Source of the DNA: Eledone cirrhosa
Lineage: Eukaryota
Assembly: GCA_964016885.1 (NCBI GenBank)
Contig: OZ024743.1
Span: forward strand, 35,712,001 to 35,776,000
Length of the DNA stretch: 64,000 nucleotides
Direction: 5' to 3'
Shown: positions 1 through 63,797 of the stretch, in pieces
Numbering within the stretch: the stretch's first letter is position 1
How the letters are laid out: each line of letters opens with the position of its first letter
The notes under the pieces: generated by a model
Told to the model about the DNA's origin: nothing
What the model saw: the letters and a program-made list of their open reading frames with translations, nothing else
Databases searched by the model: none
Translations under genes and position numbers: made by a program

Positions 1-1098
1 TAGAAACACTACACTGTGTCATTACTATACTCTGAAGACATGTAAGATATAGAAACACTACACTGTGTCATTACTATACTCTGAAGACATGTAAGATATA
101 AAAACACTACACTGTGTCATTACTATACTCTGAAGACCTATAATATATAGAAACACTACACTGTGTCATTACTATACTCTGAAGACCTGTAATATATGGA
201 AACACTACACTGTATCATTACTATACTCTGAAGACCTATAATATATAGAAACACTACACTGTGTCATTACTATACTCTGAAGAACTGTAAGATATAGAAA
301 CACCACACTGTGTCATTACTATACTGTGAAGACCTGTAATATATAGAAACACCACACTGTGTCATTACTATACTGTGAAGACCTGTAAGATATAGAAACA
401 CCACACTGTGTCATTACTATACTGTGAAGACCTGTAAGATATAGAAACGCTACACTGTATCATTACTATACTGTGAAGACCTGTAAGATATAGAAACGCT
501 ACACTGTATCATTACTATACTGTGAAGACCTGTAAGATATAGAAACGCTACACTGTATCATTACTATACTCTGAAGACCTATAATATATAGAAACACTAC
601 ACTGTGTCATTACTATACTGTGAAGACCTGTAATATATAGAAACACTACACTGTATCATTACTATACTGTGAAGACCTGTAAGATATAGAAACGCTACAC
701 TGTATCATTACTATACTGTGAAGACCTGTAAGATATAGAAACGCTACACTGTATCATTACTATACTCTGAAGACCTATAATATATAGAAACACTACACTG
801 TGTCATTACTATACTCTGAAGACCTATAATATATAGAAACACTACATTGTGTCCTTACTATACTCTGAAGAACTATAATATATAGAAACACCACACTGTG
901 TCATTACTATACTCTGAAGACCTATAATATATAGAAACAATACACCGTGTCATTACTATACTGTGAAGACCTGTAAGATATAGAAACACTACACTGTGTC
1001 ATTACTATACTGTGAAGACCTGTAAGATATAGAAACACTACAATGTGTCATTACTATACTCTGAAGACATGTAATATATAGAAACACTACACTGTGTC

Positions 1099-1158
1099 AT
1101 TACTATACTCTGAAGACCTGTAAGATATAGAAACACTACACTGTGTCATTACTATACT
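1099..1158 (+). ncRNA. Hammerhead-ribozyme-like motif (representative copy; the same layout recurs in every monomer, intact core only in CTGAAGA-type units)
   Basis: CTGAAGA 1110-1116 (C3-A9). CC-TGTA-aga-TATA 1117-1129 (non-canonical stem II). GAAA 1130-1133. Stem III ACAC 1133-1136 pairs with GTGT 1143-1146. GTC triplet ends at 1147 (C17). ATTACTATACT on both sides gives a weak stem I (3 of 4 pairs). Core order is canonical; activity is untested. Confidence 0.5.
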
Positions 1159-2850
1159 ATGAAGACCTGTAAGATATAGAAACACTACAATGTATCATTA
1201 CTATACTGTGAAGACCTGTAAGATATAGAAACACTACACTGTGTCATTACTATACTGTGAAGACCTGTAAGATATAGAAACACTACACTGTGTCATTACT
1301 ATACTCTGAAGACCTGTAAGATATAGAAACACTACACTGTGTCATTACTATACTCTGAAGACCTGTAAGATATAGAAACACTACACTGTGTCATTACCAT
1401 ACTCTGAAGACCTGTAAGATATAGAAACACTACACTGTGTCATTACTATAGTCTGAAGGCCTGTAATATATAGAAACACTACACTGTGTCATTACTATAC
1501 TCTGAAGACCTGTAAGATATAGAAACACTACACTGTGTCATTACTATACTCTGAAGACCTGTAAGATATAGAAACACTACACTGTGTCATTACTATAGTC
1601 TGAAGGCCTGTAATATATAGAAACACTACACTGTGTCATTACTATACTCTGAAGACCTGTAAAATATAGAAACACTACACTGTGTCATTACTATAGTCTG
1701 AAGGCCTGTAATATATAGAAACACTACACTGTGTCATTACTATACTCTGAAGACCTGTAAGATATAGAAACACTACACTGTGTCATTACTATACTCTGAA
1801 GACCTGTAAGATATAGAAACACTACACTGTGTCATTACTATACTCTGAAGACCTGTAAGATATAGAAACACTACACTGTGTCATTACTATACTCTGAAGA
1901 CCTGTAAGATATAGAAACACTACACTGTGTCATTACTATAGTCTGAAGGCCTGTAATATATAGAAACACTACACTGTGTCATTACTATACTCTGAAGACC
2001 TGTAAGATATAGAAACACTACACTGTGTCATTACTATACTCTGAAGACCTGTAAGATATAGAAACACTACACTGTGTCATTACTATAGTCTGAAGGCCTG
2101 TAATATATAGAAACACTACACTGTGTCATTACTATACTCTGAAGACCTGTAAAATATAGAAACACTACACTGTGTCATTACTATAGTCTGAAGGCCTGTA
2201 AGATATAGAAACACTACACTGTGTCATTACTATACTGTGAAGACCTGTAAGATATAGAAACACTACACTGTGTCATTACTATAGTCTGAAGGCCTGTAAG
2301 ATATAGAAACACTACACTGTGTCATTACTATACTGTGAAGACCTGTAAGATATAGAAACACTACACTGTGTCATTACTATAGTCTGAAGACCTGTAAGAT
2401 ATAGAAACACTACACTGTGTCATTACTATACTGTGAAGACCTGTAAGATATAGAAACACTACACTGTGTCATTACTATACTGTGAAGACCTGTAAGATAT
2501 AGAAACACTACACTGTGTCATTACTATACTGTGAAGACCTGTAAGATATAGAAACACTACACTGTGTCATTACTATAGTCTGAAGGCCTGTAATATATAG
2601 AAACACTACACTGTATCATTACTATACTGTGAAGACCTGTAAGATATAGAAACACTACACTGTGTCATTACTATACTCTGAAGACCGGTAAGATATAGAA
2701 ACACTACACTGTGTCGTTACTATACTCCGAAGACCTGTAAGACATAGAAACACTACACTGTGTCATTACTATACTATGAAGACCTGTAAGACATAGAAAC
2801 ACTACACTGTGTCATTACTATACTGTGAAGACCTGTAAGATATAGAAACA

Positions 2851-5800
2851 GTACACTGTGTCATTACTATACTCTAAAAACCTATAAGATATAGAAACAC
2901 TACACTGTATGATTACTATACTGTGAAGACCTGTAAGATATAGAAACACTACACCGTATCATTACTATACTCTGAAGACCTATAATATATAGAAACACTA
3001 CACTGTGTCATTACTATACTGTGAAGACCTGTAAGATATAGAAACGCTACACTGTATCATTACTATACTGTGAAGACCTGTAAGATATAGAAACGCTACA
3101 CTGTATCATTACTATACTGTGAAGACCTGTAAGATATAGAAACGCTACACTGTATCATTACTATACTCTGAAGACCTATAATATATAGAAACACTACACT
3201 GTGTCATTACTATACTGTGAAGACCTGTAATATATAGAAACACTACACTGTGTCATTACTATACTGTGAAGACCTGTAAGATATAGAAACACTACACTGT
3301 ATCATTACTATACTGTGAAGACCTGTAAGATATAGAAACGCTACACTGTATCATTACTATACTGTGAAGACCTGTAAGATATAGAAACGCTACACTGAAT
3401 CATTACTATACTCTGAAGACCTATAATATATAGAAACACTACACTGTGTCATTACTATACTCTGAAGACCTATAATATATAGAAACACTACATTGTGTCC
3501 TTACTATACTCTGAAGAACTATAATATATAGAAACACCACACTGTGTCATTACTATACTCTGAAGACCTATAATATATAGAAACAATACACCGTGTCATT
3601 ACTATACTGTGAAGACCTGTAAGATATAGAAACACTACACTGTGTCATTACTATACTGTGAAGACCTGTAAGATATAGAAACACTACACTGTGTCATTAC
3701 TATACTCTGAAGACCTGTAAGATATAGAAACACTACACTGTGTCATTACTATACTCTGAAGACCTGTAAGATATAGAAACACTACACTGTGTCATTACTA
3801 TACTCTGAAGACCTGTAAGATATAGAAACACTACACTGTGTCATTACTATAGTCTGAAGGCCTGTAATATATAGAAACACTACACTGTGTCATTACTATA
3901 CTCTGAAGACCTGTAAGATATAGAAACACTACACTGTGTCATTACTATACTCTGAAGACCTGTAAGATATAGAAACACTACACTGTGTCATTACTATAGT
4001 CTGAAGGCGTGTAATATATAGAAACACTACACTGTGTCATTACTATACTCTGAAGACCTGTAAAATATAGAAACACTACACTGTGTCATTACTATAGTCT
4101 GAAGGCCTGTAATATATAGAAACACTACACTGTGTCATTACTATACTCTGAAGACCTGTAAGATATAGAAACACTACACTGTGTCATTACTATACTCTGA
4201 AGACCTGTAAGATATAGAAACACTACACTGTGTCATTACTATACTCTGAAGACCTGTAAGATATAGAAACACTACACTGTGTCATTACTATACTCTGAAG
4301 ACCTGTAAGATATAGAAACACTACACTGTGTCATTACTATAGTCTGAAGGCCTGTAATATATAGAAACACTACACTGTGTCATTACTATACTCTGAAGAC
4401 CTGTAAGATATAGAAACACTACACTGTGTCATTACTATACTCTGAAGACCTGTAAGATATAGAAACACTACACTGTGTCATTACTATACTCTGAAGACCT
4501 GTAAAATATAGAAACACTACACTGTGTCATTACTATAGTCTGAAGGCCTGTAAGATATAGAAACACTACACTGTGTCATTACTATACTGTGAAGACCTGT
4601 AAGATATAGAAACACTACACTGTGTCATTACTATAGTCTGAAGGCCTGTAAGATATAGAAACACTACACTGTGTCATTACTATACTGTGAAGACCTGTAA
4701 GATATAGAAACACTACACTGTGTCATTACTATAGTCTGAAGACCTGTAAGATATAGAAACACTACACTGTGTCATTACTATACTGTGAAGACCTGTAAGA
4801 TATAGAAACACTACACTGTGTCATTACTATACTGTGAAGACCTGTAAGATATAGAAACACTACACTGTGTCATTACTATACTGTGAAGACCTGTAAGATA
4901 TAGAAACACTACACTGTGTCATTACTATAGTCTGAAGGCCTGTAATATATAGAAACACTACACTGTATCATTACTATACTGTGAAGACCTGTAAGATATA
5001 GAAACACTACACTGTGTCATTACTATACTCTGAAGACCGGTAAGATATAGAAACACTACACTGTGTCGTTACTATACTCCGAAGACCTGTAAGACATAGA
5101 AACACTACACTGTGTCATTACTATACTATGAAGACCTGTAAGACATAGAAACACTACACTGTGTCATTACTATACTGTGAAGACCTGTAAGATATAGAAA
5201 CAGTACACTGTGTCATTACTATACTCTAAAAACCTATAAGATATAGAAACACTACACTGTATGATTACTATACTGTGAAGACCTGTAAGATATAGAAACA
5301 CTACACCGTATCATTACTATACTCTGAAGACCTATAATATATAGAAACACTACACTGTGTCATTACTATACTATGAATACCTGTAAGATATAGAAACACT
5401 ACACCGTATCATTACTATACTCTGAAGACCTATAATATATAGAAACACTACACTGTGTCATTACTATACTATGAATACCTGTAAGATATAGAAACACTAC
5501 ACTGTATCATTACTATACTGTGAAGACCTGTAAGATATAGAAACACTACACTGTGTCATTACTATACTCTGAAGACATGTAAGATATAAAAACACTACAC
5601 TGTGTCATTACTATACTGTGAAGACCTGTAAGATATAGAAACACTACACTGTGTCATTACTATATTGTGAAGACCTGTAAGATATAGAAACACTACACTG
5701 TGTCATTACTATACTGTGAAGACCTGTAAGATATAGAAACACTACACTGTATCATTACTATACTCTGAAGACCTGTAAGATATAGAAACACTACACTGTG

Positions 5801-8800
5801 TCATTACTATAGTCTGAAGGCGTGTAATATATAGAAACACTACACTGTGTCATTACTATACTCTGAAGACCTGTAAAATATAGAAACACTACACTGTGTC
5901 ATTACTATAGTCTGAAGGCCGGTAAGATATAGAAACACTACACTGTGTCGTTACTATACTCCGAAGACCTGTAAGACATAGAAACACTACACTGTGTCAT
6001 TACTATACTATGAAGACCTGTAAGACATAGAAACACTACACTGTGTCATTACTATACTGTGAAGACCTGTAAGATATAGAAACAGTACACTGTGTCATTA
6101 CTATACTCTAAAAACCTATAAGATATAGAAACACTACACTGTATGATTACTATACTGTGAAGACCTGTAAGATATAGAAACACTACACCGTATCATTACT
6201 ATACTCTGAAGACCTATAATATATAGAAACACTACACTGTGTCATTACTATACTGTGAAGACCTGTAAGATATAGAAACGCTACACTGTATCATTACTAT
6301 ACTGTGAAGACCTGTAAGATATAGAAACGCTACACTGTATCATTACTATACTGTGAAGACCTGTAAGATATAGAAACGCTACACTGTATCATTACTATAC
6401 TCTGAAGACCTATAATATATAGAAACACTACACTGTGTCATTACTATACTGTGAAGACCTGTAATATATAGAAACACTACACTGTGTCATTACTATACTG
6501 TGAAGACCTGTAAGATATAGAAACACTACACTGTATCATTACTATACTGTGAAGACCTGTAAGATATAGAAACGCTACACTGTATCATTACTATACTGTG
6601 AAGACCTGTAAGATATAGAAACGCTACACTGAATCATTACTATACTCTGAAGACCTATAATATATAGAAACACTACACTGTGTCATTACTATACTCTGAA
6701 GACCTATAATATATAGAAACACTACATTGTGTCCTTACTATACTCTGAAGAACTATAATATATAGAAACACCACACTGTGTCATTACTATACTCTGAAGA
6801 CCTATAATATATAGAAACAATACACCGTGTCATTACTATACTGTGAAGACCTGTAAGATATAGAAACACTACACTGTGTCATTACTATACTGTGAAGACC
6901 TGTAAGATATAGAAACACTACAATGTGTCATTACTATACTCTGAAGACATGTAATATATAGAAACACTACACTGTGTCATTACTATACTCTGAAGACCTG
7001 TAAGATATAGAAACACTACACTGTGTCATTACTATACTATGAAGACCTGTAAGATATAGAAACACTACAATGTATCATTACTATACTGTGAAGACCTGTA
7101 AGATATAGAAACACTACACTGTGTCATTACTATACTGTGAAGACCTGTAAGATATAGAAACACTACACTGTGTCATTACTATACTCTGAAGACCTGTAAG
7201 ATATAGAAACACTACACTGTGTCATTACTATACTCTGAAGACCTGTAAGATATAGAAACACTACACTGTGTCATTACTATACTCTGAAGACCTGTAAGAT
7301 ATAGAAACACTACACTGTGTCATTACTATAGTCTGAAGGCCTGTAATATATAGAAACACTACACTGTGTCATTACTATACTCTGAAGACCTGTAAGATAT
7401 AGAAACACTACACTGTGTCATTACTATACTCTGAAGACCTGTAAGATATAGAAACACTACACTGTGTCATTACTATAGTCTGAAGGCGTGTAATATATAG
7501 AAACACTACACTGTGTCATTACTATACTCTGAAGACCTGTAAAATATAGAAACACTACACTGTGTCATTACTATAGTCTGAAGGCCTGTAATATATAGAA
7601 ACACTACACTGTGTCATTACTATACTCTGAAGACCTGTAAGATATAGAAACACTACACTGTGTCATTACTATACTCTGAAGACCTGTAAGATATAGAAAC
7701 ACTACACTGTGTCATTACTATACTCTGAAGACCTGTAAGATATAGAAACACTACACTGTGTCATTACTATACTCTGAAGACCTGTACGATATAGAAACAC
7801 TACACTGTGTCATTACTATAGTCTGAAGGCCTGTAATATATAGAAACACTACACTGTGTCATTACTATACTCTGAAGACCTGTAAGATATAGAAACACTA
7901 CACTGTGTCATTACTATACTCTGAAGACCTGTAAGATATAGAAACACTACACTGTGTCATTACTATAGTCTGAAGGCCTGTAATATATAGAAACACTACA
8001 CTGTGTCATTACTATACTCTGAAGACCTGTAAAATATAGAAACACTACACTGTGTCATTACTATAGTCTGAAGGCCTGTAAGATATAGAAACACTACACT
8101 GTGTCATTACTATACTGTGAAGACCTGTAAGATATAGAAACACTACACTGTGTCATTACTATAGTCTGAAGGCCTGTAAGATATAGAAACACTACACTGT
8201 GTCATTACTATACTGTGAAGACCTGTAAGATATAGAAACACTACACTGTGTCATTACTATAGTCTGAAGACCTGTAAGATATAGAAACACTACACTGTGT
8301 CATTACTATACTGTGAAGACCTGGAAGATATAGAAACACTACACTGTGTCATTACTATACTGTGAAGACCTGTAAGATATAGAAACACTACACTGTGTCA
8401 TTACTATACTCTGAAGACCTGTAAGATATAGAAACACTACACTGTGTCATTACTATAGTCTGAAGGCCTGTAATATATAGAAACACTACACTGTATCATT
8501 ACTATACTGTGAAGACCTGTAAGATATAGAAACACTACACTGTGTCATTACTATACTCTGAAGACCGGTAAGATATAGAAACACTACACTGTGTCGTTAC
8601 TATACTCCGAAGACCTGTAAGACATAGAAACACTACACTGTGTCATTACTATACTATGAAGACCTGTAAGACATAGAAACACTACACTGTGTCATTACTA
8701 TACTGTGAAGACCTGTAAGATATAGAAACAGTACACTGTGTCATTACTATACTCTAAAAACCTATAAGATATAGAAACACTACACTGTATGATTACTATA

Positions 8801-11800
8801 CTGTGAAGACCTGTAAGATATAGAAACACTACACCGTATCATTACTATACTCTGAAGACCTATAATATATAGAAACACTACACTGTGTCATTACTATACT
8901 GTGAAGACCTGTAAGATATAGAAACGCTACACTGTATCATTACTATACTGTGAAGACCTGTAAGATATAGAAACGCTACACTGTATCATTACTATACTGT
9001 GAAGACCTGTAAGATATAGAAACGCTACACTGTATCATTACTATACTCTGAAGACCTATAATATATAGAAACACTACACTGTGTCATTACTATACTGTGA
9101 AGACCTGTAATATATAGAAACACTACACTGTGTCATTACTATACTGTGAAGACCTGTAAGATATAGAAACACTACACTGTATCATTACTATACTGTGAAG
9201 ACCTGTAAGATATAGAAACGCTACACTGTATCATTACTATACTGTGAAGACCTGTAAGATATAGAAACGCTACACTGAATCATTACTATACTCTGAAGAC
9301 CTATAATATATAGAAACACTACACTGTGTCATTACTATACTCTGAAGACCTATAATATATAGAAACACTACATTGTGTCCTTACTATACTCTGAAGAACT
9401 ATAATATATAGAAACACCACACTGTGTCATTACTATACTCTGAAGACCTATAATATATAGAAACAATACACCGTGTCATTACTATACTGTGAAGACCTGT
9501 AAGATATAGAAACACTACACTGTGTCATTACTATACTGTGAAGACCTGTAAGATATAGAAACACTACAATGTGTCATTACTATACTCTGAAGACATGTAA
9601 TATATAGAAACACTACACTGTGTCATTACTATACTCTGAAGACCTGTAAGATATAGAAACACTACACTGTGTCATTACTATACTATGAAGACCTGTAAGA
9701 TATAGAAACACTACAATGTATCATTACTATACTGTGAAGACCTGTAAGATATAGAAACACTACACTGTGTCATTACTATACTGTGAAGACCTGTAAGATA
9801 TAGAAACACTACACTGTGTCATTACTATACTCTGAAGACCTGTAAGATATAGAAACACTACACTGTGTCATTACTATACTCTGAAGACCTGTAAGATATA
9901 GAAACACTACACTGTGTCATTACTATACTCTGAAGACCTGTAAGATATAGAAACACTACACTGTGTCATTACTATAGTCTGAAGGCCTGTAATATATAGA
10001 AACACTACACTGTGTCATTACTATACTCTGAAGACCTGTAAGATATAGAAACACTACACTGTGTCATTACTATACTCTGAAGACCTGTAAGATATAGAAA
10101 CACTACACTGTGTCATTACTATAGTCTGAAGGCGTGTAATATATAGAAACACTACACTGTGTCATTACTATACTCTGAAGACCTGTAAAATATAGAAACA
10201 CTACACTGTGTCATTACTATAGTCTGAAGGCCTGTAATATATAGAAACACTACACTGTGTCATTACTATACTCTGAAGACCTGTAAGATATAGAAACACT
10301 ACACTGTGTCATTACTATACTCTGAAGACCTGTAAGATATAGAAACACTACACTGTGTCATTACTATACTCTGAAGACCTGTAAGATATAGAAACACTAC
10401 ACTGTGTCATTACTATACTCTGAAGACCTGTAAGATATAGAAACACTACACTGTGTCATTACTATAGTCTGAAGGCCTGTAATATATAGAAACACTACAC
10501 TGTGTCATTACTATACTCTGAAGACCTGTAAGATATAGAAACACTACACTGTGTCATTACTATACTCTGAAGACCTGTAAGATATAGAAACACTACACTG
10601 TGTCATTACTATACTCTGAAGACCTGTAAAATATAGAAACACTACACTGTGTCATTACTATAGTCTGAAGGCCTGTAAGATATAGAAACACTACACTGTG
10701 TCATTACTATACTGTGAAGACCTGTAAGATATAGAAACACTACACTGTGTCATTACTATAGTCTGAAGGCCTGTAAGATATAGAAACACTACACTGTGTC
10801 ATTACTATACTGTGAAGACCTGTAAGATATAGAAACACTACACTGTGTCATTACTATAGTCTGAAGACCTGTAAGATATAGAAACACTACACTGTGTCAT
10901 TACTATACTGTGAAGACCTGTAAGATATAGAAACACTACACTGTGTCATTACTATACTGTGAAGACCTGTAAGATATAGAAACACTACACTGTGTCATTA
11001 CTATACTGTGAAGACCTGTAAGATATAGAAACACTACACTGTGTCATTACTATAGTCTGAAGGCCTGTAATATATAGAAACACTACACTGTATCATTACT
11101 ATACTGTGAAGACCTGTAAGATATAGAAACACTACACTGTGTCATTACTATACTCTGAAGACCGGTAAGATATAGAAACACTACACTGTGTCGTTACTAT
11201 ACTCCGAAGACCTGTAAGACATAGAAACACTACACTGTGTCATTACTATACTATGAAGACCTGTAAGACATAGAAACACTACACTGTGTCATTACTATAC
11301 TGTGAAGACCTGTAAGATATAGAAACAGTACACTGTGTCATTACTATACTCTAAAAACCTATAAGATATAGAAACACTACACTGTATGATTACTATACTG
11401 TGAAGACCTGTAAGATATAGAAACACTACACCGTATCATTACTATACTCTGAAGACCTATAATATATAGAAACACTACACTGTGTCATTACTATACTATG
11501 AATACCTGTAAGATATAGAAACACTACACCGTATCATTACTATACTCTGAAGACCTATAATATATAGAAACACTACACTGTGTCATTACTATACTATGAA
11601 TACCTGTAAGATATAGAAACACTACACTGTATCATTACTATACTGTGAAGACCTGTAAGATATAGAAACACTACACTGTGTCATTACTATACTCTGAAGA
11701 CATGTAAGATATAAAAACACTACACTGTGTCATTACTATACTGTGAAGACCTGTAAGATATAGAAACACTACACTGTGTCATTACTATATTGTGAAGACC

Positions 11801-14800
11801 TGTAAGATATAGAAACACTACACTGTGTCATTACTATACTGTGAAGACCTGTAAGATATAGAAACACTACACTGTATCATTACTATACTCTGAAGACCTG
11901 TAAGATATAGAAACACTACACTGTGTCATTACTATAGTCTGAAGGCGTGTAATATATAGAAACACTACACTGTGTCATTACTATACTCTGAAGACCTGTA
12001 AAATATAGAAACACTACACTGTGTCATTACTATAGTCTGAAGGCCGGTAAGATATAGAAACACTACACTGTGTCGTTACTATACTCCGAAGACCTGTAAG
12101 ACATAGAAACACTACACTGTGTCATTACTATACTATGAAGACCTGTAAGACATAGAAACACTACACTGTGTCATTACTATACTGTGAAGACCTGTAAGAT
12201 ATAGAAACAGTACACTGTGTCATTACTATACTCTAAAAACCTATAAGATATAGAAACACTACACTGTATGATTACTATACTGTGAAGACCTGTAAGATAT
12301 AGAAACACTACACCGTATCATTACTATACTCTGAAGACCTATAATATATAGAAACACTACACTGTGTCATTACTATACTGTGAAGACCTGTAAGATATAG
12401 AAACGCTACACTGTATCATTACTATACTGTGAAGACCTGTAAGATATAGAAACGCTACACTGTATCATTACTATACTGTGAAGACCTGTAAGATATAGAA
12501 ACGCTACACTGTATCATTACTATACTCTGAAGACCTATAATATATAGAAACACTACACTGTGTCATTACTATACTGTGAAGACCTGTAATATATAGAAAC
12601 ACTACACTGTGTCATTACTATACTGTGAAGACCTGTAAGATATAGAAACACTACACTGTATCATTACTATACTGTGAAGACCTGTAAGATATAGAAACGC
12701 TACACTGTATCATTACTATACTGTGAAGACCTGTAAGATATAGAAACGCTACACTGAATCATTACTATACTCTGAAGACCTATAATATATAGAAACACTA
12801 CACTGTGTCATTACTATACTCTGAAGACCTATAATATATAGAAACACTACATTGTGTCCTTACTATACTCTGAAGAACTATAATATATAGAAACACCACA
12901 CTGTGTCATTACTATACTCTGAAGACCTATAATATATAGAAACAATACACGGTGTCATTACTATACTGTGAAGACCTGTAAGATATAGAAACACTACACT
13001 GTGTCATTACTATACTGTGAAGACCTGTAAGATATAGAAACACTACAATGTGTCATTACTATACTCTGAAGACATGTAATATATAGAAACACTACACTGT
13101 GTCATTACTATACTCTGAAGACCTGTAAGATATAGAAACACTACACTGTGTCATTACTATACTATGAAGACCTGTAAGATATAGAAACACTACAATGTAT
13201 CATTACTATACTGTGAAGACCTGTAAGATATAGAAACACTACACTGTGTCATTACTATACTGTGAAGACCTGTAAGATATAGAAACACTACACTGTGTCA
13301 TTACTATACTCTGAAGACCTGTAAGATATAGAAACACTACACTGTGTCATTACTATACTCTGAAGACCTGTAAGATATAGAAACACTACACTGTGTCATT
13401 ACTATACTCTGAAGACCTGTAAGATATAGAAACACTACACTGTGTCATTACTATAGTCTGAAGGCCTGTAATATATAGAAACACTACACTGTGTCATTAC
13501 TATACTCTGAAGACCTGTAAGATATAGAAACACTACACTGTGTCATTACTATACTCTGAAGACCTGTAAGATATAGAAACACTACACTGTGTCATTACTA
13601 TAGTCTGAAGGCGTGTAATATATAGAAACACTACACTGTGTCATTACTATACTCTGAAGACCTGTAAAATATAGAAACACTACACTGTGTCATTACTATA
13701 GTCTGAAGGCCTGTAATATATAGAAACACTACACTGTGTCATTACTATACTCTGAAGACCTGTAAGATATAGAAACACTACACTGTGTCATTACTATACT
13801 CTGAAGACCTGTAAGATATAGAAACACTACACTGTGTCATTACTATACTCTGAAGACGTGTAAGATATAGAAACACTACACTGTGTCATTACTATACTCT
13901 GAAGACCTGTACGATATAGAAACACTACACTGTGTCATTACTATAGTCTGAAGGCCTGTAATATATAGAAACACTACACTGTGTCATTACTATACTCTGA
14001 AGACCTGTAAGATATAGAAACACTACACTGTGTCATTACTATACTCTGAAGACCTGTAAGATATAGAAACACTACACTGTGTCATTACTATAGTCTGAAG
14101 GCCTGTAATATATAGAAACACTACACTGTGTCATTACTATACTCTGAAGACCTGTAAAATATAGAAACACTACACTGTGTCATTACTATAGTCTGAAGGC
14201 CTGTAAGATATAGAAACACTACACTGTGTCATTACTATACTGTGAAGACCTGTAAGATATAGAAACACTACACTGTGTCATTACTATAGTCTGAAGGCCT
14301 GTAAGATATAGAAACACTACACTGTGTCATTACTATACTGTGAAGACCTGTAAGATATAGAAACACTACACTGTGTCATTACTATAGTCTGAAGACCTGT
14401 AAGATATAGAAACACTACACTGTGTCATTACTATACTGTGAAGACCTGGAAGATATAGAAACACTACACTGTGTCATTACTATACTGTGAAGACCTGTAA
14501 GATATAGAAACACTACACTGTGTCATTACTATACTCTGAAGACCTGTAAGATATAGAAACACTACACTGTGTCATTACTATAGTCTGAAGGCCTGTAATA
14601 TATAGAAACACTACACTGTATCATTACTATACTGTGAAGACCTGTAAGATATAGAAACACTACACTGTGTCATTACTATACTCTGAAGACCGGTAAGATA
14701 TAGAAACACTACACTGTGTCGTTACTATACTCCGAAGACCTGTAAGACATAGAAACACTACACTGTGTCATTACTATACTATGAAGACCTGTAAGACATA

Positions 14801-14855
14801 GAAACACTACACTGTGTCATTACTATACTGTGAAGACCTGTAAGATATAGAAACA
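2851..14855. repeat. Two-copy ~6-kb higher-order duplication (5880 bp = 120 units; 6125 bp = 125 units) built from 48-54-unit and 18-unit sub-blocks
   Basis: Marker ACAGTACAC..CTAAAAACC at 2851, 5203, 6085, 8731, 11328, 12210, 14856 (spacings 48, 18, 54, 53, 18, 54 units). Private variants CTGTACGAT (7787/13912) and CTGGAAGA (8321/14446) are both 6125 bp apart. Confidence 0.9.
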
Positions 14856-49400: not shown

Positions 49401-49798
49401 ACTACACTGTGTCATTACTATACTGTGAAGACCTGTAATATATAGAAACACTACACTGTGTCATTACTATACAGTGAAGACCTATAATATATAGAAACAC
49501 TACATTGTGTCATTACTATACTGTGAAGACCTGTAATATATAGAAACACTACACTGTATCACTACTATACTGTGAAGACCTATAATATATAGTAAGACTA
49601 CACTGTGTCACTACTATACTCTGAAGACCTGTAAGATATAGAAACACTACACTGTGTCATTACTATACTGTGAAGACCTGTAAGATATAGAAACACTACA
49701 CTGTGTCATTACTATACTCTGAAAACATATAAGATATAGAAACACTACACTGTGTCATTACTATACTATGAAGACCTGTAAGATATAGAAACACTACA
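42713..49798. repeat. Tandem duplication, period 3528 bp (72 units)
   Basis: TATTGAAATA 44051/47579, TACCGTGAAG 44521/48049, AGTAAGAC 43125/46653 and 46065/49593. Confidence 0.9.
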
Positions 49799-52700
49799 AT
49801 GTATCATTACTATACTGTGAAGACCTGTAAGATATAGAAACACTACACTGTGTCATTACTATACTGTGAAGACCTGTAAGATATAGAAACACTACACTGT
49901 GTCATTACTATACTCTGAAAACCTATAAGATATAGAAACACTACACTGTATCATTACTATACTGTGAAGATCTGTAAGATATAGAAACACTACACTGTGT
50001 CATTACTATACTGTGAACACCTGTAAGATATAGAAACACTACACTGTGTCATTACTATACTCTGAAGACCTGTAAGATATAGAAACACTACGCTGTGTCA
50101 TTACTATACTCTGAAGACCTGTAAGATATAGAAACACTACACTGTGTCATTACTATACTCTGAAGACCTGTAAGATATAGAAACACTACACTGTGTCATT
50201 ACTATACTCTGAAGACCTGTAAGCTATAGAAACACTACACTGTGTCATTACTATAGTCTGAAGGCCTGTAATATATAGAAACACTACACTGTGTCATTAC
50301 TATACTCTGAAGACCTGTAAGATATAGAAACACTACACTGTGGCAATACTATACTGTGAAGACCTGTAAGATATAGAAACACTACACTGTGTCATTACTA
50401 TACTCTGAAGACCTGTAAAATATAGAAACACTACACTGTATCATTACTATACTGTGAAGACCTGTAAGATATAGAAATACTACACTGTGTCATTACTATA
50501 CTGTGAAGACCTGTAAGATATAGAAATACTACACTGTGTCATTACTATACTGTGAAGACCTGTAAGATATAGAAACACTACACTGTGTCATTACTATACT
50601 GTGAAGAACTATAATATATAGAAACACTACATTGTGTCATTACTATACTGTGAAGACCTGTAAGATATAGAAAAACTACACTGTGTCATTACTATACTGT
50701 GAAGAACTATAATATATAGAAACACTACATTGTGTCATTACTATACTGTGAAGACCTGTAAGATATAGAAACACTACACTGTGTCATTACTATACTGTGA
50801 AGAACTATAATATATAGAAACACTACATTGTGTCATTACTATACTGTGAAGACCTGTAAGATATAGAAACACTACACTGTGTCATTACTATACCGTGAAG
50901 ACCTGTAAGATATAGAAACACTACACTGTGTCATTACTATACTGTGAAGAACTATAATATATAGAAACACTACATTGTGTCATTACTATACTGTGAAGAC
51001 CTGTAAGATATAGAAACACTACACTGTGTCATTACTATACGCTGAAGACATGTAAGATATAGAAACACTACACCGTGTCATTACTATACTGTGATGACCT
51101 GTAAGATATAGAAACACTACACTGTGTCATTACTATACTGTGAAGACCTGTAAGATATAGAAACACTACACTGTGTCATTACTATACTGTGAAGACCTGT
51201 AAGATATAGAAACACTACACTGTGTCATTACTATACTGTGAAGACCTGTAAGATATAGAAACACTACACTGTGTCATTACTATACTCTGAAGACATGTAA
51301 GATATAGAAACACTACACTGTGTCATTACTATACTCTGAAGAACTATAATATATAGAAACACTACACTGTGTCATTATTATACTCTGAAGACCTATAATA
51401 TATAGAAACACTACACTGTGTCATTACTATACTGTGAATACCTGTAATATATAGAAACACTACACTGTATCATTACTATACTCTGAAGACCTATAATATA
51501 TAGAAACACTACATTGTGTCCTTACTATCCTCTGAAGAAATATAATATATAGAAACACTACACTGTGTCATTACTATACTCTGAAGACCTATAATATATA
51601 GAAACACTACATTGTGTCCTTACTATACTCTGAAGAACTATAATATATAGAAACACTACACTGTGTCATTATTATACTCTGAAGACCTATAATATATAGA
51701 AACACTACACTGTGTCATTACTATACTGTGAATACCTGTAATATATAGAAACACTACACTGTATCATTACTATACTCTGAAGACCTATAATATATAGAAA
51801 CACTACATTGTGTCCTTACTATCCTCTGAAGAAATATAATATATAGAAACACTACACTGTGTCATTACTATACTCTGAAGACCTATAATATATAGAAACA
51901 CTACACTGTGTCATTACTATACTCTGAAGACCTGTAAGATATAGAAACACTACACTGTGTCATTACTATACTGTGATGACCTGTAAGATATAGAAACACT
52001 ACACTGTGTCATTACTATACTGTGAAGACCTATAATATATAGAAACACTACACTGTGTCATTACTATACTGTGAAGACCTGTAAGATATAGAAACACTAC
52101 ACTGTATCATTACTATACTGTGAAGACCTATAATATATAGAAACACTACACTGTGTCATTACTATACTGTGAAGACCTGTAAGATATAGAAACACTACAC
52201 TGTATCATTACTATACTCTGAAGACCTATAATATATAGAAACACTACACTGTGTCATTACTATACTGTGAAGACCTGTAATATATAGAAACACTACACTG
52301 TGTCATTACTATACAGTGAAGACCTATAATATATAGAAACACTACATTGTGTCATTACTATACTGTGAAGACCTGTAATATATAGAAACACTACACTGTA
52401 TCACTACTATACTGTGAAGACCTATAATATATAGTAAGACTACACTGTGTCACTACTATACTCTGAAGACCTGTAAGATATAGAAACACTACACTGTGTC
52501 ATTACTATACTGTGAAGACCTGTAAGATATAGAAACACTACACTGTGTCATTACTATACTCTGAAAACATATAAGATATAGAAACACTACACTGTGTCAT
52601 TACTATACTATGAAGACCTGTAAGATATAGAAACACTACAATGTATCATTACTATACTGTGAAGACCTGTAAGATATAGAAACACTACACTGTGTCATTA

Positions 52701-53449
52701 CTATACTGTGAAGACCTGTAAGATATAGAAACACTACACTGTGTCATTACTATACTCTGAAAACCTATAAGATATAGAAACACTACACTGTATCATTACT
52801 ATACTGTGAAGATCTGTAAGATATAGAAACACTACACTGTGTCATTACTATACTGTGAACACCTGTAAGATATAGAAACACTACACTGTGTCATTACTAT
52901 ACTCTGAAGACCTGTAAGATATAGAAACACTACGCTGTGTCATTACTATACTCTGAAGACCTGTAAGATATAGAAACACTACACTGTGTCATTACTATAC
53001 TCTGAAGACCTGTAAGATATAGAAACACTACACTGTGTCATTACTATACTCTGAAGACCTGTAAGCTATAGAAACACTACACTGTGTCATTACTATAGTC
53101 TGAAGGCCTGTAATATATAGAAACACTACACTGTGTCATTACTATACTCTGAAGACCTGTAAGATATAGAAACACTACACTGTGGCAATACTATACTGTG
53201 AAGACCTGTAAGATATAGAAACACTACACTGTGTCATTACTATACTCTGAAGACCTGTAAAATATAGAAACACTACACTGTATCATTACTATACTGTGAA
53301 GACCTGTAAGATATAGAAATACTACACTGTGTCATTACTATACTGTGAAGACCTGTAAGATATAGAAATACTACACTGTGTCATTACTATACTGTGAAGA
53401 CCTGTAAGATATAGAAACACTACACTGTGTCATTACTATACTGTGAAGA
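47690..53449. repeat. Tandem duplication, period 2842 bp (58 units), overlapping the previous one
   Basis: TACGCTGTG 50091/52933, TGGCAATACT 50341/53183, AGTAAGAC 49593/52435. Confidence 0.9.
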
Positions 53450-56400
53450 CCTGTAAGATATAGAAACACTACACTGTGTCATTACTATACTGTGAAGACC
53501 TTGTAAGATATAGAAACACTACACTGTGTCATTACTATACTGTGAAGACCTGTAAGATATAGAAACACTACACTGTGTCATTACTATACTGTGAAGACCT
53601 GTAATATATAGAAACACTACACTGTGTCATTATTATACTCTGAAAACCTGTAAGATATAGAAACACTACACTGTGTCATTACTATACTGCGAAGACCTGT
53701 AAGATATAGAAACACTACACTGTATCATTACTATACTCTGAAGACCTATAATATATAGAAACACTACACTGTGTCATTACTATACTGTGAAGACCTGTAA
53801 GATATAGAAACACTACACTGTGTCATTACTATACTGTGAAGACCTGTAATATATAGAAACACTACACTGTGTCATTATTATACTGTGAAGACCTGTAAGA
53901 TATAGAAACACTACACTGTGTATTTATTATACTGGGAAGACCTGTAAGATATAGAAACACTACACTGTGTCATTATTATACTGTGAAGACCTGTAAGATA
54001 TAGAAACACTACACTGTGTCATTACTATACTGTGAAGACCTGTAATATATAGAAACACTACACTGTGTCATTATTATACTGTGAAGACCTGTAAGATATA
54101 GAAACACTACACTGTGTCATTACTATACTGTGAAGACCTGTAAGATATAGAAACACTACACTGTGTCATTACTATACTGTGAAGACCTGTAAGATATAGA
54201 AACACTACACTGTGTCATTATTATACTGTGAAGACCTGTAAGATATAGAAACACTACACTGTGTCATTACTATACTGTGAAGACCTGTAATATATAGAAA
54301 CACTACACTGTGTCATTATTATACTGTGAAGACCTGTAAGATATAGAAACACTACACTGTGTCATTACTATACTGTGAAGACCTGTAAGATATAGAAACA
54401 CTACACCGTATCATTACTATACTCTGAAGACCTATAATATATAGAAACACTACACTGTGTCATTACTATACTATGAAGACCTGTAAGATATAGAAACACT
54501 ACAATGTATCATTACTATACTCTGAAGACCTATAATATATAGAAACACTACATTGTGTCCTTACTATACTCTGAAGAACTATAATATATAGAAACACTAC
54601 ACTGTGTCATTACTATAGTCTGAAGGCCTGTAATATATAGAAACACAACACTGTGTCATTACTATACTCCGAAGACTTGTAAGACATAGAAACACTACAC
54701 TGTGTCATTACTATACTCTGAAGACCTGTAATATATAGAAACACTACACTGTGTCATTACTATACTCTGAAGACCTGTAAAATATAGAAACACTACACTG
54801 TGTCATTACTATAGTCTGAATGCCTGTAAGATATAGAAACACTACACTGTGTCATTACTATACTGTGAAGACCTGTAAGATATAGAAACACTACACTGTG
54901 TCATTACTATAGTCTGAAGGCCTGTAATATATAGAAACACTACACTGTGTCATTACTATACTCTGAAGACCTGTAAGATATAGAAACACTACACTGTATC
55001 ATTACTATACTCTGAAGACATGTAAAATATTGAAATACTACACTGTATCATTACTATACTGTGAAGACCTGTAAGATATAGAAACACTACACTGTGTCAT
55101 TACTATACTGTGAAGACCTGTAAGATATAGAAACACTGCACTGTGTCATTACTATACTGTGAAGACCTGTAAGATATAGAAACACTACACTGTGTCATTA
55201 CTATACTGTGAAGAACTATAATATATAGAAACACTACATTGTGTCATTACTATACTGTGAAGACCTGTAAGATATAGAAAAACTACACTGTGTCATTACT
55301 ATACTGTGAAGAACTATAATATATAGAAACACTACATTGTGTCATTACTATACTGTGAAGACCTGTAAGATATAGAAACACTACACTGTGTCATTACTAT
55401 ACTGTGAAGAACTATAATATATAGAAACACTACATTGTGTCATTACTATACTGTGAAAACCTGTAAGATATAGAAACACTACACTGTGTCATTACTATAC
55501 CGTGAAGACCTGTAAGATATAGAAACACTACACTGTGTCATTACTATACTGTGAAGAACTATAATATATAGAAACACTACATTGTGTCATTACTATACTG
55601 TGAAGACCTGTAAGATATAGAAACACTACACTGTGTCATTACTATACGCTGAAGACATGTAAGATATAGAAACACTACACCGTGTCATTACTATACTGTG
55701 ATGACCTGTAAGATATAGAAACACTACACTGTGTCATTACTATACTGTGAAGACCTGTAAGATATAGAAACACTACACTGTGTCATTACTATACTCTGAA
55801 GACCTGTAAGATATAGAAACACTACACTGTGTCATTACTATACTGTGAAGACCTGTAAGATATAGAAACACTACACTGTGTCATTACTATACTCTGAAGT
55901 CATGTAAGATATAGAAACACTACACTGTGTCATTACTATACTGTGAAGACCTGTAAGATATAGAAACACTACACCGTATCATTACTATACTGTGAAGACC
56001 TATAATATATAGAAACACTACATTGTGTCCTTACTATACTCTGAAGAACTATAATATATAGAAACACTACACTGTGTCATTATTATACTCTGAAGACCTA
56101 TAATATATAGAAACACTACACTGTGTCATTACTATACTGTGAATACCTGTAATATATAGAAACACTACACTGTATCATTACTATACTCTGAAGACCTATA
56201 ATATATAGAAACACTACATTGTGTCCTTACTATCCTCTGAAGAACTATAATATATAGAAACACTACACTGTGTCATTACTATACTCTGAAGACCTATAAT
56301 ATATAGAAACACTACACTGTGTCATTACTATACTCTGAAGACCTGTAAGATATAGAAACACTACACTGTGTCATTACTATACTGTGATGACCTGTAAGAT

Positions 56401-59400
56401 ATAGAAACACTACACTGTGTCATTACTATACTGTGAAGACCTATAATATATAGAAACACTACACTGTGTCATTACTATACTGTGAAGACCTGTAAGATAT
56501 AGAAACACTACACTGTATCATTACTATACTGTGAAGACCTATAATATATAGAAACACTACACTGTGTCATTACTATACTGTGAAGACCTGTAAGATATAG
56601 AAACACTACACTGTATCATTACTATACTCTGAAGACCTATAATATATAGAAACACTACACTGTGTCATTACTATACTGTGAAGACCTGTAATATATAGAA
56701 ACACTACACTGTGTCATTACTATACAGTGAAGACCTATAATATATAGAAACACTACATTGTGTCATTACTATACTGTGAAGACCTGTAATATATAGAAAC
56801 ACTACACTGTATCACTACTATACTGTGAAGACCTATAATATATAGTAAGACTACACTGTGTCACTACTATACTCTGAAGACCTGTAAGATATAGAAACAC
56901 TACACTGTGTCATTACTATACTGTGAAGACCTGTAAGATATAGAAACACTACACTGTGTCATTACTATACTCTGAAAACATATAAGATATAGAAACACTA
57001 CACTGTGTCATTACTATACTATGAAGACCTGTAAGATATAGAAACACTACAATGTATCATTACTATACTGTGAAGACCTGTAAGATATAGAAACACTACA
57101 CTGTGTCATTACTATACTCTGAAAACCTATAAGATATAGAAACACTACACTGTATCATTACTATACTGTGAAGATCTGTAAGATATAGAAACACTACACT
57201 GTGTCATTACTATACTGTGAACACCTGTAAGATATAGAAACACTACACTGTGTCATTACTATACTCTGAAGACCTGTAAGATATAGAAAAACTACATTGT
57301 GTCATTACTATACTCTGAAGACCTGTAAGATATAGAAACACTACACTGTGTCATTACTATACTCTGAAGACCTGTAAGATATAGAAACACTACACTGTGT
57401 CATTACTATACTCTGAAGACCTGTAAGCTATAGAAACACTACACTGTGTCATTACTATAGTCTGAAGGCCTGTAATATATAGAAACACTACACTGTGTCA
57501 TTACTATACTCTGAAGACCTGTAAGATATAGAAACACTACACTGTGTCAATACTATACTGTGAAGACCTGTAAGATATAGAACACTACACTGTGTCATTA
57601 CTATACTCTGAAGACCTGTAAAATATAGAAACACTACACTGTATCATTACTATACTGTGAAGACCTGTAAGATATAGAAATACTACACTGTGTCATTACT
57701 ATACTGTGAAGACCTGTAAGATATAGAAATACTACACTGTGTCATTACTATACTGTGAAGACCTGTAAGATATAGAAACACTACACTGTGTCATTACTAT
57801 ACTGTGAAGACCTGTAAGATATAGAAACACTACACTGTGTCATTACTATACTGTGAAGACCTTGTAAGATATAGAAACACTACACTGTGTCATTACTATA
57901 CTGTGAAGACCTGTAAGATATAGAAACACTACACTGTGTCATTACTATACTGTGAAGACCTGTAATATATAGAAACACTACACTGTGTCATTATTATACT
58001 CTGAAAACCTGTAAGATATAGAAACACTACACTGTGTCATTACTATACTGCGAAGACCTGTAAGATATAGAAACACTACACTGTATCATTACTATACTCT
58101 GAAGACCTATAATATATAGAAACACTACACTGTGTCATTACTATACTGTGAAGACCTGTAAGATATAGAAACACTACACTGTGTCATTACTATACTGTGA
58201 AGACGACCTGTAATATATAGAAACACTACACTTTGTCATTATTATACTGTGAAGACCTGTAAGATATAGAAACACTACACTGTGTCATTATTATACTGGG
58301 AAGACCTGTAAGATATAGAAACACTACACTGTGTCATTATTATACTGTGAAGACCTGTAAGATATAGAAACACTACACTGTGTCATTACTATACTGTGAA
58401 GACCTGTAATATATAGAAACACTACACTGTGTCATTATTATACTGTGAAGACCTGTAAGATATAGAAACACTACACTGTGTCATTACTATACTGTGAAGA
58501 CCTGTAAGATATAGAAACACTACACTCTGTCATTACTATACTGTGAAGACCTGTAAGATATAGAAACACTACACTGTGTCATTATTATACTGTGAAGACC
58601 TGTAAGATATAGAAACACTACACTGTGTCATTACTATACTGTGAAGACCTGTAATATATAGAAACACTACACTGTGTCATTATTATACTGTGAAGACCTG
58701 TAAGATATAGAAACACTACACTGTGTCATTACTATACTGTGAAGACCTGTAAGATATAGAAACACTACACCGTATCATTACTATACTCTGAAGACCTATA
58801 ATATATAGAAACACTACACTGTGTCATTACTATACTATGAAGACCTGTAAGATATAGAAACACTACAATGTATCATTACTATACTCTGAAGACCTATAAT
58901 ATATAGAAACACTACATTTTGTCCTTACTATACTCTGAAGAACTATAATATATAGAAACACTACACTGTGTCATTACTATAATCTGAAGGCCTGTAATAT
59001 ATAGAAACACAACACTGTGTCATTACTATACTCCGAAGACTTGTAAGACATAGAAACACTACACTGTGTCATTACTATACTCTGAAGACCTGTAATATAT
59101 AGAAACACTACACTGTGTCATTACTATACTCTGAAGACCTGTAAAATATAGAAACACTACACTGTGTCATTACTATACTGTGAAGACCTGTAAGATATAG
59201 AAACACTACACTGTGTCATTACTATAGTCTGAAGGCCTGTAATATATAGAAACACTACACTGTGTCATTACTATAGTCTGAATGCCTGTAAGATATAGAA
59301 ACACTACACTGTGTCATTACTATACTCTGAAGACCTGTAAGATATAGAAACACTACACTGTATCATTACTATACTCTGAAGACCTGTAAAATATTGAAAT

Positions 59401-59500
59401 ACTACACTGTATCATTACTATACTGTGAAGACCTGTAAGATATAGAAACACTACACTGTGTCATTACTATACTGTGAAGACCTGTAAGATATAGAAACAC
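53450..59500. repeat. Older, more diverged repeat of period ~4361 bp (89 units); boundaries approximate
   Basis: +T insertion 53501/57862, CTGCGAAG 53690/58051, ACTGGGAAG 53931/58295. The right-hand copy carries private changes (AGACGACC 58201, CTTTGTC, CTCTGTC, AATCTGA). Confidence 0.8.
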
Positions 59501-59699
59501 TGCACTGTGTCATTACTATACTGTGAAGACCTGTAAGATATAGAAACACTACACTGTGTCATTACTATACTCTGAAGACCTGTAAAATATAGAAACACTA
59601 CACTGTATCATTACTATACTGTGAAGACCTGTAAGATATAGAAACACTGCACTGTGTCATTACTATACTGTGAAGACCTGTAAGATATAGAAACACTAC

Positions 59700-62600
59700 A
59701 CTGTGTCATTACTATACTGTGAAGACCTGTAAGATATAGAAACACTACACTGTGTCATTACTATACTGTGAAGACCTGTAAGATATAGAAACACTACACT
59801 GTGTCATTACTATACTGTGAAGACCTGTAAGATATAGAAACACTACACTGTGTCATTACTATACTGTGAAGACCTGTAAGATATAGAAACACTACACTGT
59901 GTCATTACTATACTGTGAAGACCTGTAAGATATAGAAACACTACACTGTGTCATTACTATACTGTGAAGACCTGTAAGATATAGAAACACTACACTGTGT
60001 CATTACTATACTGTGAAGACCTGTAAGATATAGAAACACTACACTGTGTCATTACTATACTGTGAAGACCTGTAAGATATAGAAACACTACACTGTATCA
60101 TTACTATACTCTGAAGACCTATAATATATAGAAACACTACACTGTGTCATTACTATACTCTGAAGACCTGTAAGATATAGAAACACTACACTGTGTCATT
60201 ACTATATTTGAAGACCTGTATGATATAGAAACACCACACTGTATCATTACTATACTGTGAAGACCTATAATATATAGTAAGACTACACTGTGTCATTACT
60301 ATACTCTGAAGACCCGTAAGATATAGAAACACTACACTGTGTCATTACTATACTGTGAAGACCTGTAAGATATAGAAACACTACACTGTGTCATTACTAT
60401 ACTCTGAAGACCTGTAATATATAGAAACACTACACTGTGTCATTACTATACTCTGAAGACCTATAATATATAGAAACACTACACTGTGTCATTACTATAC
60501 TCTGAAGACCTATAATATATAGAAACACTACACTGTGTCATTACTATACTGTGAAGACCTGTAAGATATAGAAACACTACACTGTGTCATTACTATACTC
60601 TGAAGACCTGTAATATATAGAAACACTACACTGTGTCATTACTATACTCTGAAGACCTATAATATATAGAAACACTACACTGTGTCATTACTATACTCTG
60701 AAGACCTATAATATATAGAAACACTACACTGTGTCATTACTATACTCTGAAGACCTATAATATATAGAAACACTACACTGTGTCATTACTATACTCTGAA
60801 GACCTATAATATATAGAAACACTACACTGTATCATTACTATACTGTGAAGACCTATAATATATAGAAACACTACACTGTGTCATTACTATACTCTGAAGA
60901 CCTGTAAGATAGAGAAATACTACACTGTGTCATTACTATACTCTGAAGACCTGTAAGATATAGAAACACTACACTGTGTCATTACTATACTCTGAAGACC
61001 TGTAAGATATAGAAACACTACACTGTGTCATTACTATACTCTGAAGACCTGTAAGATAGAGAAATACTACACTGTGTCATTACTATACTCTGAAGACCTG
61101 TAAGATATAGAAACACTACACTGTGTCATTACTATACTCTGAAGACCTATAATATATAGAAACACTACACTGCATCATTACTATACTCTGAAGACCTATA
61201 ATATATAGAAACACTACACTGTGTCATTACTATACGCTGAAGACCTGTAAGATATAGAAACACTACACTGTGTCATTACTATACTCTGAAGACCTGTAAG
61301 ATATAGAAACACTACACTGTATCATTACTATAGTCTGAATGCCTGTAAGATATAGAAACACTACACTGTGTCATTACTATACTGTGAAGACCTGTAAGAT
61401 ATAGAAACACTACACTGTGTCATTACTATACTGTGAAGACCTGTAAGATATAGAAACACTACACTGTATCATTACTATACTGTGAAGACCTGTAAGATAT
61501 AGAAACACTACACTGTGTCATTACTATACTGTGAAGACCTGTAAGATATAGAAACACTACACTGTGTCATTACTATACTGTGAAGACCTGTAAGATATAG
61601 AAACACTACACTGTGTCATTACTATACTGTGAAGACCTGTAAGATATAGAAACACTACACTGTGTCATTACTATACTGTGAAGACCTGTAAGATATAGAA
61701 ACACTACACTGTGTCATTACTATACTGTGAAGACCTGTAAGATATAGAAACACTACACTGTATCATTACTATACTCTGAAGACCTATAATATATAGAAAC
61801 ACTACACTGTGTCATTACTATACTCTGAAGACCTGTAAGATATAGAAACACTACACTGTGTCATTACTATATTTGAAGACCTGTATGATATAGAAACACC
61901 ACACTGTATCATTACTATACTGTGAAGACCTATAATATATAGTAAGACTACACTGTGTCATTACTATACTCTGAAGACCTGTAAGATATAGAAACACTAC
62001 ACTGTGTCATTACTATACTGTGAAGACCTGTAAGATATAGAAACACTACACTGTGTCATTACTATACTCTGAAGACCTGTAATATATAGAAATACTACAC
62101 TGTGTCATTACTATACTCTGAAGACCTATAATATATAGAAACACTACACTGTGTCATTACTATACTCTGAAGACCTATAATATATAGAAACACTACACTG
62201 TGTCATTACTATACTGTGAAGACCTGTAAGATATAGAAACACTACACTGTGTCATTACTATACTCTGAAGACCTGTAATATATAGAAACACTACACTGTG
62301 TCATTACTATACTCTGAAGACCTATAATATATAGAAACACTACACTGTGTCATTACTATACTCTGAAGACCTATAATATATAGAAACACTACACTGTGTC
62401 ATTACTATACTCTGAAGACCTATAATATATAGAAACACTACACTGTATCATTACTATACTCTGAAGACCTGTAAGATAGAGAAATACTACACTGTGTCAT
62501 TACTATACTCTGAAGACCTGTAAGATATAGAAACACTACACTGTGTCATTACTATACTCTGAAGACCTGTAAGATATAGAAACACTACACTGTGTCATTA

Positions 62601-62900
62601 CTATACTCTGAAGACCTGTAAGATAGAGAAATACTACACTGTGTCATTACTATACTCTGAAGACCTGTAAGATATAGAAACACTACACTGTGTCATTACT
62701 ATACTCTGAAGACCTATAATATATAGAAACACTACACTGCATCATTACTATACTCTGAAGACCTATAATATATAGAAACACTACACTGTGTCATTACTAT
62801 ACGCTGAAGACCTGTAAGATATAGAAACACTACACTGTGTCATTACTATACTCTGAAGATCTGTAAGATATAGAAACACTACACTGCATCATTACTATAC
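59700..62900. repeat. Terminal two-copy duplication, period 1567-1665 bp (32-34 units); boundaries approximate
   Basis: 1-bp-deleted TATTTGAAG unit at ~60207 and ~61872, AGTAAGAC 60278/61943, GATAGAGAAATAC pairs 60911+61058 and 62478+62625. Confidence 0.85.
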
Positions 62901-63435
62901 TCTGAAGACCTATAATATATAGAAACACTACACTGTGTCATTACTATACTCTGAAGACCTGTAAGATATAGAAACACTACACTGTGTCGTTACTATACCG
63001 TGAAGACCTGTAAGATATAGAAACACTAGACTGTATCATTACTATACTGTGAAGACCTGTAAGATATAGAAACACTACACTGTGTCATTACTATACTGTG
63101 AAGACCTGTAATATATAGAAACACTACACTGTGTCATTACTATACTGAGAAGACCTGTAATATATAGAAACACTACACTGTATCATTACTATACTCTGAA
63201 GACCTGTAAGATATAGAAACACTAGACTGTATCATTACTATACTGAGAAGACCTGTAAGATATAGAAACACTACACTGTATCATTACTATACTCTGAAGA
63301 CCTGTAAAATATAGAAACACTACACTGTGTCATTACTATACTGTGAAGACCTGTAAAATATAGAAACACTACACTGTGTCAAAGAAAATATTTAATATTA
63401 AATGAGTAAACGATATAACACCTTGAGTGAATTAC

Positions 63436-63769: not shown

Positions 63770-63797
63770 ACATTTTACTTATAATGATAATTTCGAG

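Follow-up and report, generated by a model that had tools for sequence, protein, structure and literature searches.

Hammerhead ribozymes occur in satellite DNAs of newt, Schistosoma and cricket. Non-LTR retrozymes and hammerhead satellites carry a folded hammerhead in each unit, give RNAs of ~170–400 nt and leave dispersed monomers; coral retrozyme RNAs of 170–400 nt range from dimers to 62-mers (PMC7229834), and tandem hammerhead families have consensus lengths of 51–972 bp and up to 300 units (bioRxiv 10.64898/2026.07.22.740005). Minimal hammerheads of Penelope-like elements are short and lack tertiary loops; they keep a G10.1-C11.1 pair and a well-formed helix II, their helix I has 4–5 bp, their helix III is either palindromic or missing, and they cleave weakly as dimers or trimers (PMC4209133). 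Hammerheads also reside in pseudo-long terminal repeats (pLTRs), often with an inverted truncated copy (bioRxiv 10.1101/2021.04.23.441226). Here, we compare with these systems a 49-bp tandem satellite that fills most of a 64,000-nt stretch of Eledone cirrhosa DNA (contig OZ024743.1; G000:C4:35,712,001-35,776,000 of a 3.0-Gb genome), referred to below as the window.

A first-pass annotation, made from the letters alone, had parsed the whole 49-bp monomer as a minimal hammerhead and had proposed either a self-processing array of >1000 concatenated bare cores or a decayed hammerhead amplified as a satellite. Our analysis favors a plainer reading, namely that the element is an ordinary single-locus satellite and that its hammerhead-like core is probably a chance lookalike. 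The locus is one array with block repeats of 72–149 units, polymorphic and unselected core letters, and computed folds that lack helices I and II. Of the defining features of hammerheads, retrozymes and pLTR hammerheads that were examined, it shows only stem III and, in a minority of its units, the core letters. It resembles an ordinary satellite or long minisatellite in its head-to-tail 49-bp units, 93% mean identity, confinement to one 152-kb locus, block duplications and neutral-looking variation, and differs from one in that a minority allele spells a hammerhead core. Read in this way, the array is a lineage-specific satellite of little wider consequence.

A 49-bp satellite array at a single locus

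The array and the unit on which the hammerhead parse was based comprise the following features (window coordinates):
1..63381, plus strand: 49-bp tandem satellite, making up the right-hand 63 kb of an array that spans ~152 kb at one locus
1110..1158, plus strand: example unit with the C allele, the monomer of the first-pass annotation; 109 of 1,279 units are identical
1110..1116, plus strand: CTGAAGA box, a lookalike of C3-A9; 621 of 1,279 units begin it with G
1117..1129, plus strand: 13-nt helix II region without a 10.1-11.1 pair; best helix 4 bp with no G-C pair, folding energy 0
1130..1147, plus strand: GAAA box, 4-bp stem III with a 6-nt non-palindromic loop, and GTC; G12 and the GUC site are paired in the preferred fold
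1148..1158, plus strand: 11-nt linker, the would-be helix I, with 3 of the first 4 pairs and none beyond

A tandem repeat scan bears out the annotated satellite across window positions 1–63381, with a period of 49, 1293.4 copies and 93% matches. Neighboring stretches extend the array without a break from ~35,623,654 to 35,775,381 (G000:C4), giving ~152 kb and ~3,090 units (3,092 anchors), a long, homogeneous, head-to-tail array. Statistics on single units below refer to 1,279 units in the window and to 3,059 (or 3,091) units array-wide. All 629 genome-wide matches to a core pattern lie in the local array, and a 21-mer allowed up to two mismatches matches the genome 3,032 times in forward and once in reverse orientation (control, 1 and 0). 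Exact and ≤2-mismatch patterns revealed neither scattered monomers nor short arrays at other loci, a search that more diverged copies could escape. Identity peaks at lags of 72–149 units reveal kilobase block duplications, indicating that the array grew at the DNA level. The repeat is also present in contigs from four sequencing runs; no such contig bridges to the flank, and both alleles at the C3 position are present in runs X1 and X6. The low-depth runs X3, X5 and X6 yielded no information about ancestry. A literature search over titles and abstract openings found no paper on this satellite.

Core letters are a minority allele

The monomer with CTGAAGA, GAAA, GTC and a 4-bp stem III in register exists, for example at window positions 1110–1158, and the hammerhead parse stands as a statement about letters. 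It does not stand as a description of the typical unit: with 109 of 1,279 units, the C-allele monomer ranks second in frequency, and the commonest variant (197 of 1,279) begins GTGAAGA, with G at C3, as does the Tandem Repeats Finder (TRF) consensus. Specifically, position C3 is G in 621, C in 606, A in 47 and T in 5 of the window units, and G in 1,788 and C in 1,208 of the 3,059 array units. A hammerhead needs the C3-G8 pair. A U3-A8 pair has been reported as its covariant (PMC4209133).

In the window, 437 of 1,279 units have an intact core (CUGANGA, GAAA and UH in order), and 403 have both an intact core and stem III; array-wide, the corresponding counts are 914 and 736 (24%) of 3,059. The proposed number of >1000 concatenated bare cores is thus overstated, because only ~400 units in the window and ~740 in the array keep both. 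Helix III is present in the letters, as 995 of 1,279 units could form 4 bp, A15.1-U16.1 among them. The reservations about the other two helices that accompanied the original parse hold: positions 10.1/11.1 are C.A in 1,185 of 1,279 units, and the stem I mismatch is U.C in 1,139 and U.G in 113.

Like the minimal hammerheads of Penelope-like elements, which are common both in this genome and next to the array, the unit is short and lacks tertiary loops; however, the satellite shows none of the helix features of that type and does not lie in a pLTR. In particular, G10.1-C11.1 occurs in 0 of 3,091 units, any pair at that position together with an intact core occurs in four, and loop III (UACACU) is not palindromic. 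With retrozymes and hammerhead satellites it shares being an animal tandem repeat with core letters in type I order, but it consists of ~3,090 units at one locus, of which 24% keep core and stem III, with no helix I or II and no dispersed copies found. Its copy number is ten times that of the largest retrozyme array in the 2026 survey (bioRxiv 10.64898/2026.07.22.740005). Array-wide, 261 pairs of adjacent units carry core and stem III in both members; helices I and II are missing from the computed folds, leaving no complete type I hammerhead in consecutive units.

Core letters are not under detectable constraint

Core positions are no less variable than the remainder of the unit (0.065 versus 0.037 outside the core, p = 0.96). 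Of the 686 units whose stem III is disrupted by G16.2A, 4 also carry the compensating change C15.2T, which is chance level (p = 1.0). Core-breaking changes moreover fall on the C3 background, with 143 of 146 changes at A9 and 71 of 94 changes at U4. One association runs in favor of a hammerhead, namely the linkage of C3 with an intact G16.2 (odds ratio 2.4), which is best read as haplotype structure in a clonal array. The core thus shows neither selection nor compensatory change.

Helices I and II are absent from computed folds

The computed preferred fold pairs the strand bearing G12 with the strand bearing GUC. G12 is the general base of the hammerhead (PMC6155905), and its probability of being unpaired is 0.01–0.06. 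The preferred fold is no more stable than those of shuffled sequences (z = −0.65, −0.04 and 0.20; trimer, −1.64), and helix III has a pair probability of 0.43–0.48 in the monomer and 0.02 in the trimer. When the core is held open and stem III is forced, 0 of 3 satellite contexts gain helix I or helix II, versus both helices in 7 of 9 hammerhead controls from this genome. The full three-way fold lies at +5.3 kcal/mol versus −7.8 kcal/mol for the preferred fold, a penalty of ~13 kcal/mol. The energy of opening the core does not discriminate on its own (satellite, 4.3–6.5 kcal/mol; controls, 3.4–15.5 kcal/mol), so the discriminating measures are helix I/II formation and the full junction. A helix II that closes the core is lacking, with a region energy of 0, no G-C pair and no helix under constraint; helix I, with 3 of its first 4 pairs and none beyond, is likewise absent under constraint.

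The comparison with covariance models that the first-pass annotation had proposed also fails to support a hammerhead. An Rfam scan of the window at the gathering score gave 0 matches, a scan of 320 bases at E ≤ 10 gave no hammerhead and a single small nucleolar RNA (snoRNA) match (E 2.8), and a scan of the flanks gave, among the matches listed, only microsatellite-driven microRNA and snoRNA matches. Model R2, built from 25 rows of this genome's hammerheads, none of them picked with satellite letters, scores the parsed unit at 7.6 bits and the best unit at 9.6 bits, a noise level reached by many unselected places; clear family copies score 20–55 bits, although some real copies of poorly covered families reach only 10–12 bits. 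The satellite is predicted not to fold or cleave as a hammerhead.

These results bear directly on the idea of a functional, retrozyme-like concatemer of minimal hammerheads, in which the plus-strand transcript would cleave itself, perhaps through dimer folds, into 49-nt multiples. We regard this idea as very improbable. What speaks for it is that 403 of the 1,279 window units keep core and stem III, that such units lie side by side in the adjacent pairs described above, and that minimal hammerheads cleave weakly as dimers or trimers (PMC4209133) and tandem hammerhead families are reported to be as short as 51 bp (bioRxiv 10.64898/2026.07.22.740005). However, self-processing is unsupported because C3 is a minority state, the core is not conserved, core breaks accumulate on the C3 background, neither helix I nor helix II arises even with the core forced open, and a three-way fold is costly. 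Confinement to a single locus and the missing 10.1-11.1 pair argue against it as well, as does the contrast with a real tandem hammerhead array of this genome, a retrozyme-like array (L260:1308-8210; G000:C1 14,044,300-14,051,200) of 469 bp × 14.7 with 99% matches, in which each of the 15 cores is intact. Equally slim is the chance of a more specific version, in which a Penelope-derived hammerhead would have been trimmed to 49 bp and raised to ~3,090 copies, and the ~740 core-keeping units would still undergo slow cleavage through multimer folds, so that read-through transcripts would be cut into multiples of 49 nt. Cleavage, if demonstrated, would be notable as that of a very large ribozyme array with a very short unit.

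Internal repeat and left edge modestly suggest a local origin

1..63381 contains, as an example, the following further feature:
61507..61533, plus strand: internal 11-nt direct repeat at 16-nt spacing, 10/11 identical with the G allele and 9/11 with the C allele

This internal repeat is significant with the G allele (104 of 3,000 shuffles) and not with the C allele (789 of 3,000). At the left edge of the array, the first 14 units carry G at C3, and the very first unit begins TTA-AAAC and lacks G12. The left flank has a diverged paralogue (L150:1545-1770; G000:C1 426.06 Mb), which shares two blocks with it (47/56 and 20/24 bases) and continues after them with 11 exact bases of the first unit and then AGACC; it lacks both a CTGA box and a GAAA. 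The P value of this colinear match is 0.004–0.06 depending on scoring, and no further copies of the L150 family were found.

The internal repeat and the flank paralogue modestly suggest that the core was pieced together by a repeat junction and a G-to-C change. In the favored account, a stretch of 49 bp of local DNA would have been duplicated in tandem to give the founding repeat, and the duplication junction would have set the G of the GAAA box next to AAAC, as the first left-edge unit suggests. C3 would be a G-to-C variant of the older internal repeat, and block duplication of DNA would have enlarged the array.

Evidence for and against hammerhead ancestry

Several observations weigh against a chance origin. 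Among 200,000 circular dinucleotide shuffles, core order with a stem III of at least 4 bp and UH appears in 102 (~5e-4 per monomer), so the arrangement is uncommon; the count is 15 under Watson-Crick pairs and UC, and 201 with any base at C3. A helix I with 3 of its 4 first pairs arises by chance in 12%. Model R1, built from 40 rows of this genome's hammerheads, scores the unit at 15.9 bits and intact-core variants of the C unit at up to 23.7 bits; about half of its rows were picked with satellite letters, and we set it aside because it is biased towards the satellite. Genome-wide, the generic core pattern has 55,338 matches versus 4,123 in the reversed control, an excess of ~51,000, and the ACAC/GTGTC version of the pattern has 14 reverse-strand matches versus 1–2 in the control, so hammerhead-derived DNA is a common seed in this genome. 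C-background units differ more from one another than G-background units (3.25 versus 2.66 differences), which does not favor G as the ancestral state. In a looser, less targeted test, the L150 match is weak (806 and 2,836 of 20,000; P 0.04–0.14). Finally, the array ends on the right one base after GTC, by our estimate a ~1-in-25 coincidence.

In the rival account, a tandem duplication of 49 bp would have captured a decayed type I hammerhead of the Penelope type, and amplification would then have produced a neutral satellite without present activity; the second proposal of the first-pass annotation, a decayed hammerhead amplified as a satellite, is of this kind. We consider this possible, though on balance doubtful. 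The reading stays alive given the wealth of hammerhead cores in this genome, and ancestry is plausible because of the ~51,000 excess cores and of a Penelope-like element 6–15 kb to the right of the array (L011:6786-7357, L012:566-5416; G000:C4 35,781,800-35,790,400). The element has a 654-aa open frame with a reverse transcriptase and, at its C terminus, a GIY-YIG domain (1 of the 40 frames scanned), as well as three repeats, identical to each other and in one case inverted, that carry a minimal hammerhead with a palindromic helix III. A well-formed type I hammerhead with a GUA triplet and a long helix II lies 1.4 kb to the left of the array (L013 ~7190-7270, minus strand). Furthermore, the satellite geometry with N7 free has 315 reverse-strand matches versus 26 and 27 in controls, a 12:1 excess, and several local families likewise lack the 10.1-11.1 pair, some of them with a 13-nt helix II region.

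The geometry excess shrinks, however, once the CTGAAGA box is required (N7 = A), to 25 matches on the array-free strand versus 5 and 10 in controls (mean 7.5 per strand; ~2.3:1), indicating that chance cores are common in this genome. A tandem unit also gives chance about four times as many placements (~49, versus 12 for a captured 38-nt core), and applying this ratio to the ~2.3:1 excess leaves odds of ~0.6:1 for ancestry; the placements and odds are our estimates. A best helix II without a G-C pair is rare among sampled genome cores (2 of 26) and present in 56% of simulated chance cores. Conversely, a stem III of at least 4 bp occurs in 0 of 26 sampled cores versus 8% of chance cores, and a partial helix I in 31% versus 12%; taken together, the helix features roughly cancel between ancestry and chance. 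The left-edge paralogue and the internal repeat point the other way from ancestry.

A parent has not emerged from the search, which covered sampled families. The best blastn match of the dimer against 343,626 non-array bases has E 0.093, and the repeats of the neighboring Penelope-like element are unrelated to the satellite (best E 1.3). None of 10 dispersed pattern matches is closer to the unit than random sequence with the pattern forced (P ≥ 0.12), and across seven sampled families, an incomplete sample, there is no homology to a pLTR or pLTR-derived family beyond the core. Among monomer variants, none points to an ancestral GACCT/AGGTC helix II, for which no direct search was made. The second proposal of the annotation thus keeps its footing in a genome rich in cores, but no related element was found among the sampled families and the unit scores at noise level with R2. 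A plus-strand likeness to three families (4–12 of 300 shuffles) was discarded, as it disappeared after correction for the forced pattern in the 10 pattern matches covered.

Decayed ancestry, if true, would make the array a modest case of a large satellite seeded by a ribozyme motif; tandem repeats that carry hammerheads have already been reported with units as short as 51 bp. For the ordinary satellite that we favor, the lesson is one of method: with ~50,000 hammerhead cores in a genome, matches in core order need tests of helices I and II and of selection.

Other hammerheads and repeats of the genome

Rfam Hammerhead_1 matches 18 of 74 scored genome candidates, from a family that shows no relation to the satellite at the 12 loci inspected. 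The sampled families covary across helices I–III, with 96 doubly changed cells versus 43 in shuffles, a count inflated by relatedness. Abundant families (e.g. L095, L124 and L126) have an unpaired base on each side at the foot of helix II, replacing G10.1-C11.1. In the commonest sampled family, helix II is 3 bp long, and members are often arranged as closely spaced inverted pairs. The family of L077, L078 and L082 carries a core that resembles a hammerhead's but is not folded into one in computed structures; in the L078 copy, the core lies ~300 nt upstream of an endonuclease-like frame, likely in the 5′ region of a long interspersed nuclear element (LINE).

The window closes with one feature outside the array:
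63382..64000, no strand assigned: right flank, a short AT-rich stretch followed by a high-copy dispersed repeat from ~63,440

The dispersed repeat directly after the array (window 63,440–63,800) has 746 candidates. In the style of their SINEs and microsatellites, the flanks seem reminiscent of an octopus genome. Long CACCAC and CACCA-type simple repeat tracts lie a few kb to the left of the array (L014:3073-10000, continuing into L013), and the monomer shares an 11-mer with a C-rich pentamer array in L014, which we treated as low-complexity sequence. Elsewhere, copies of one identical 23-mer are spaced 2–30 kb apart in long same-strand runs at G000:C25 19.1–21.9 Mb and further on (L209-L231), which suggests a large tandem gene or repeat cluster.

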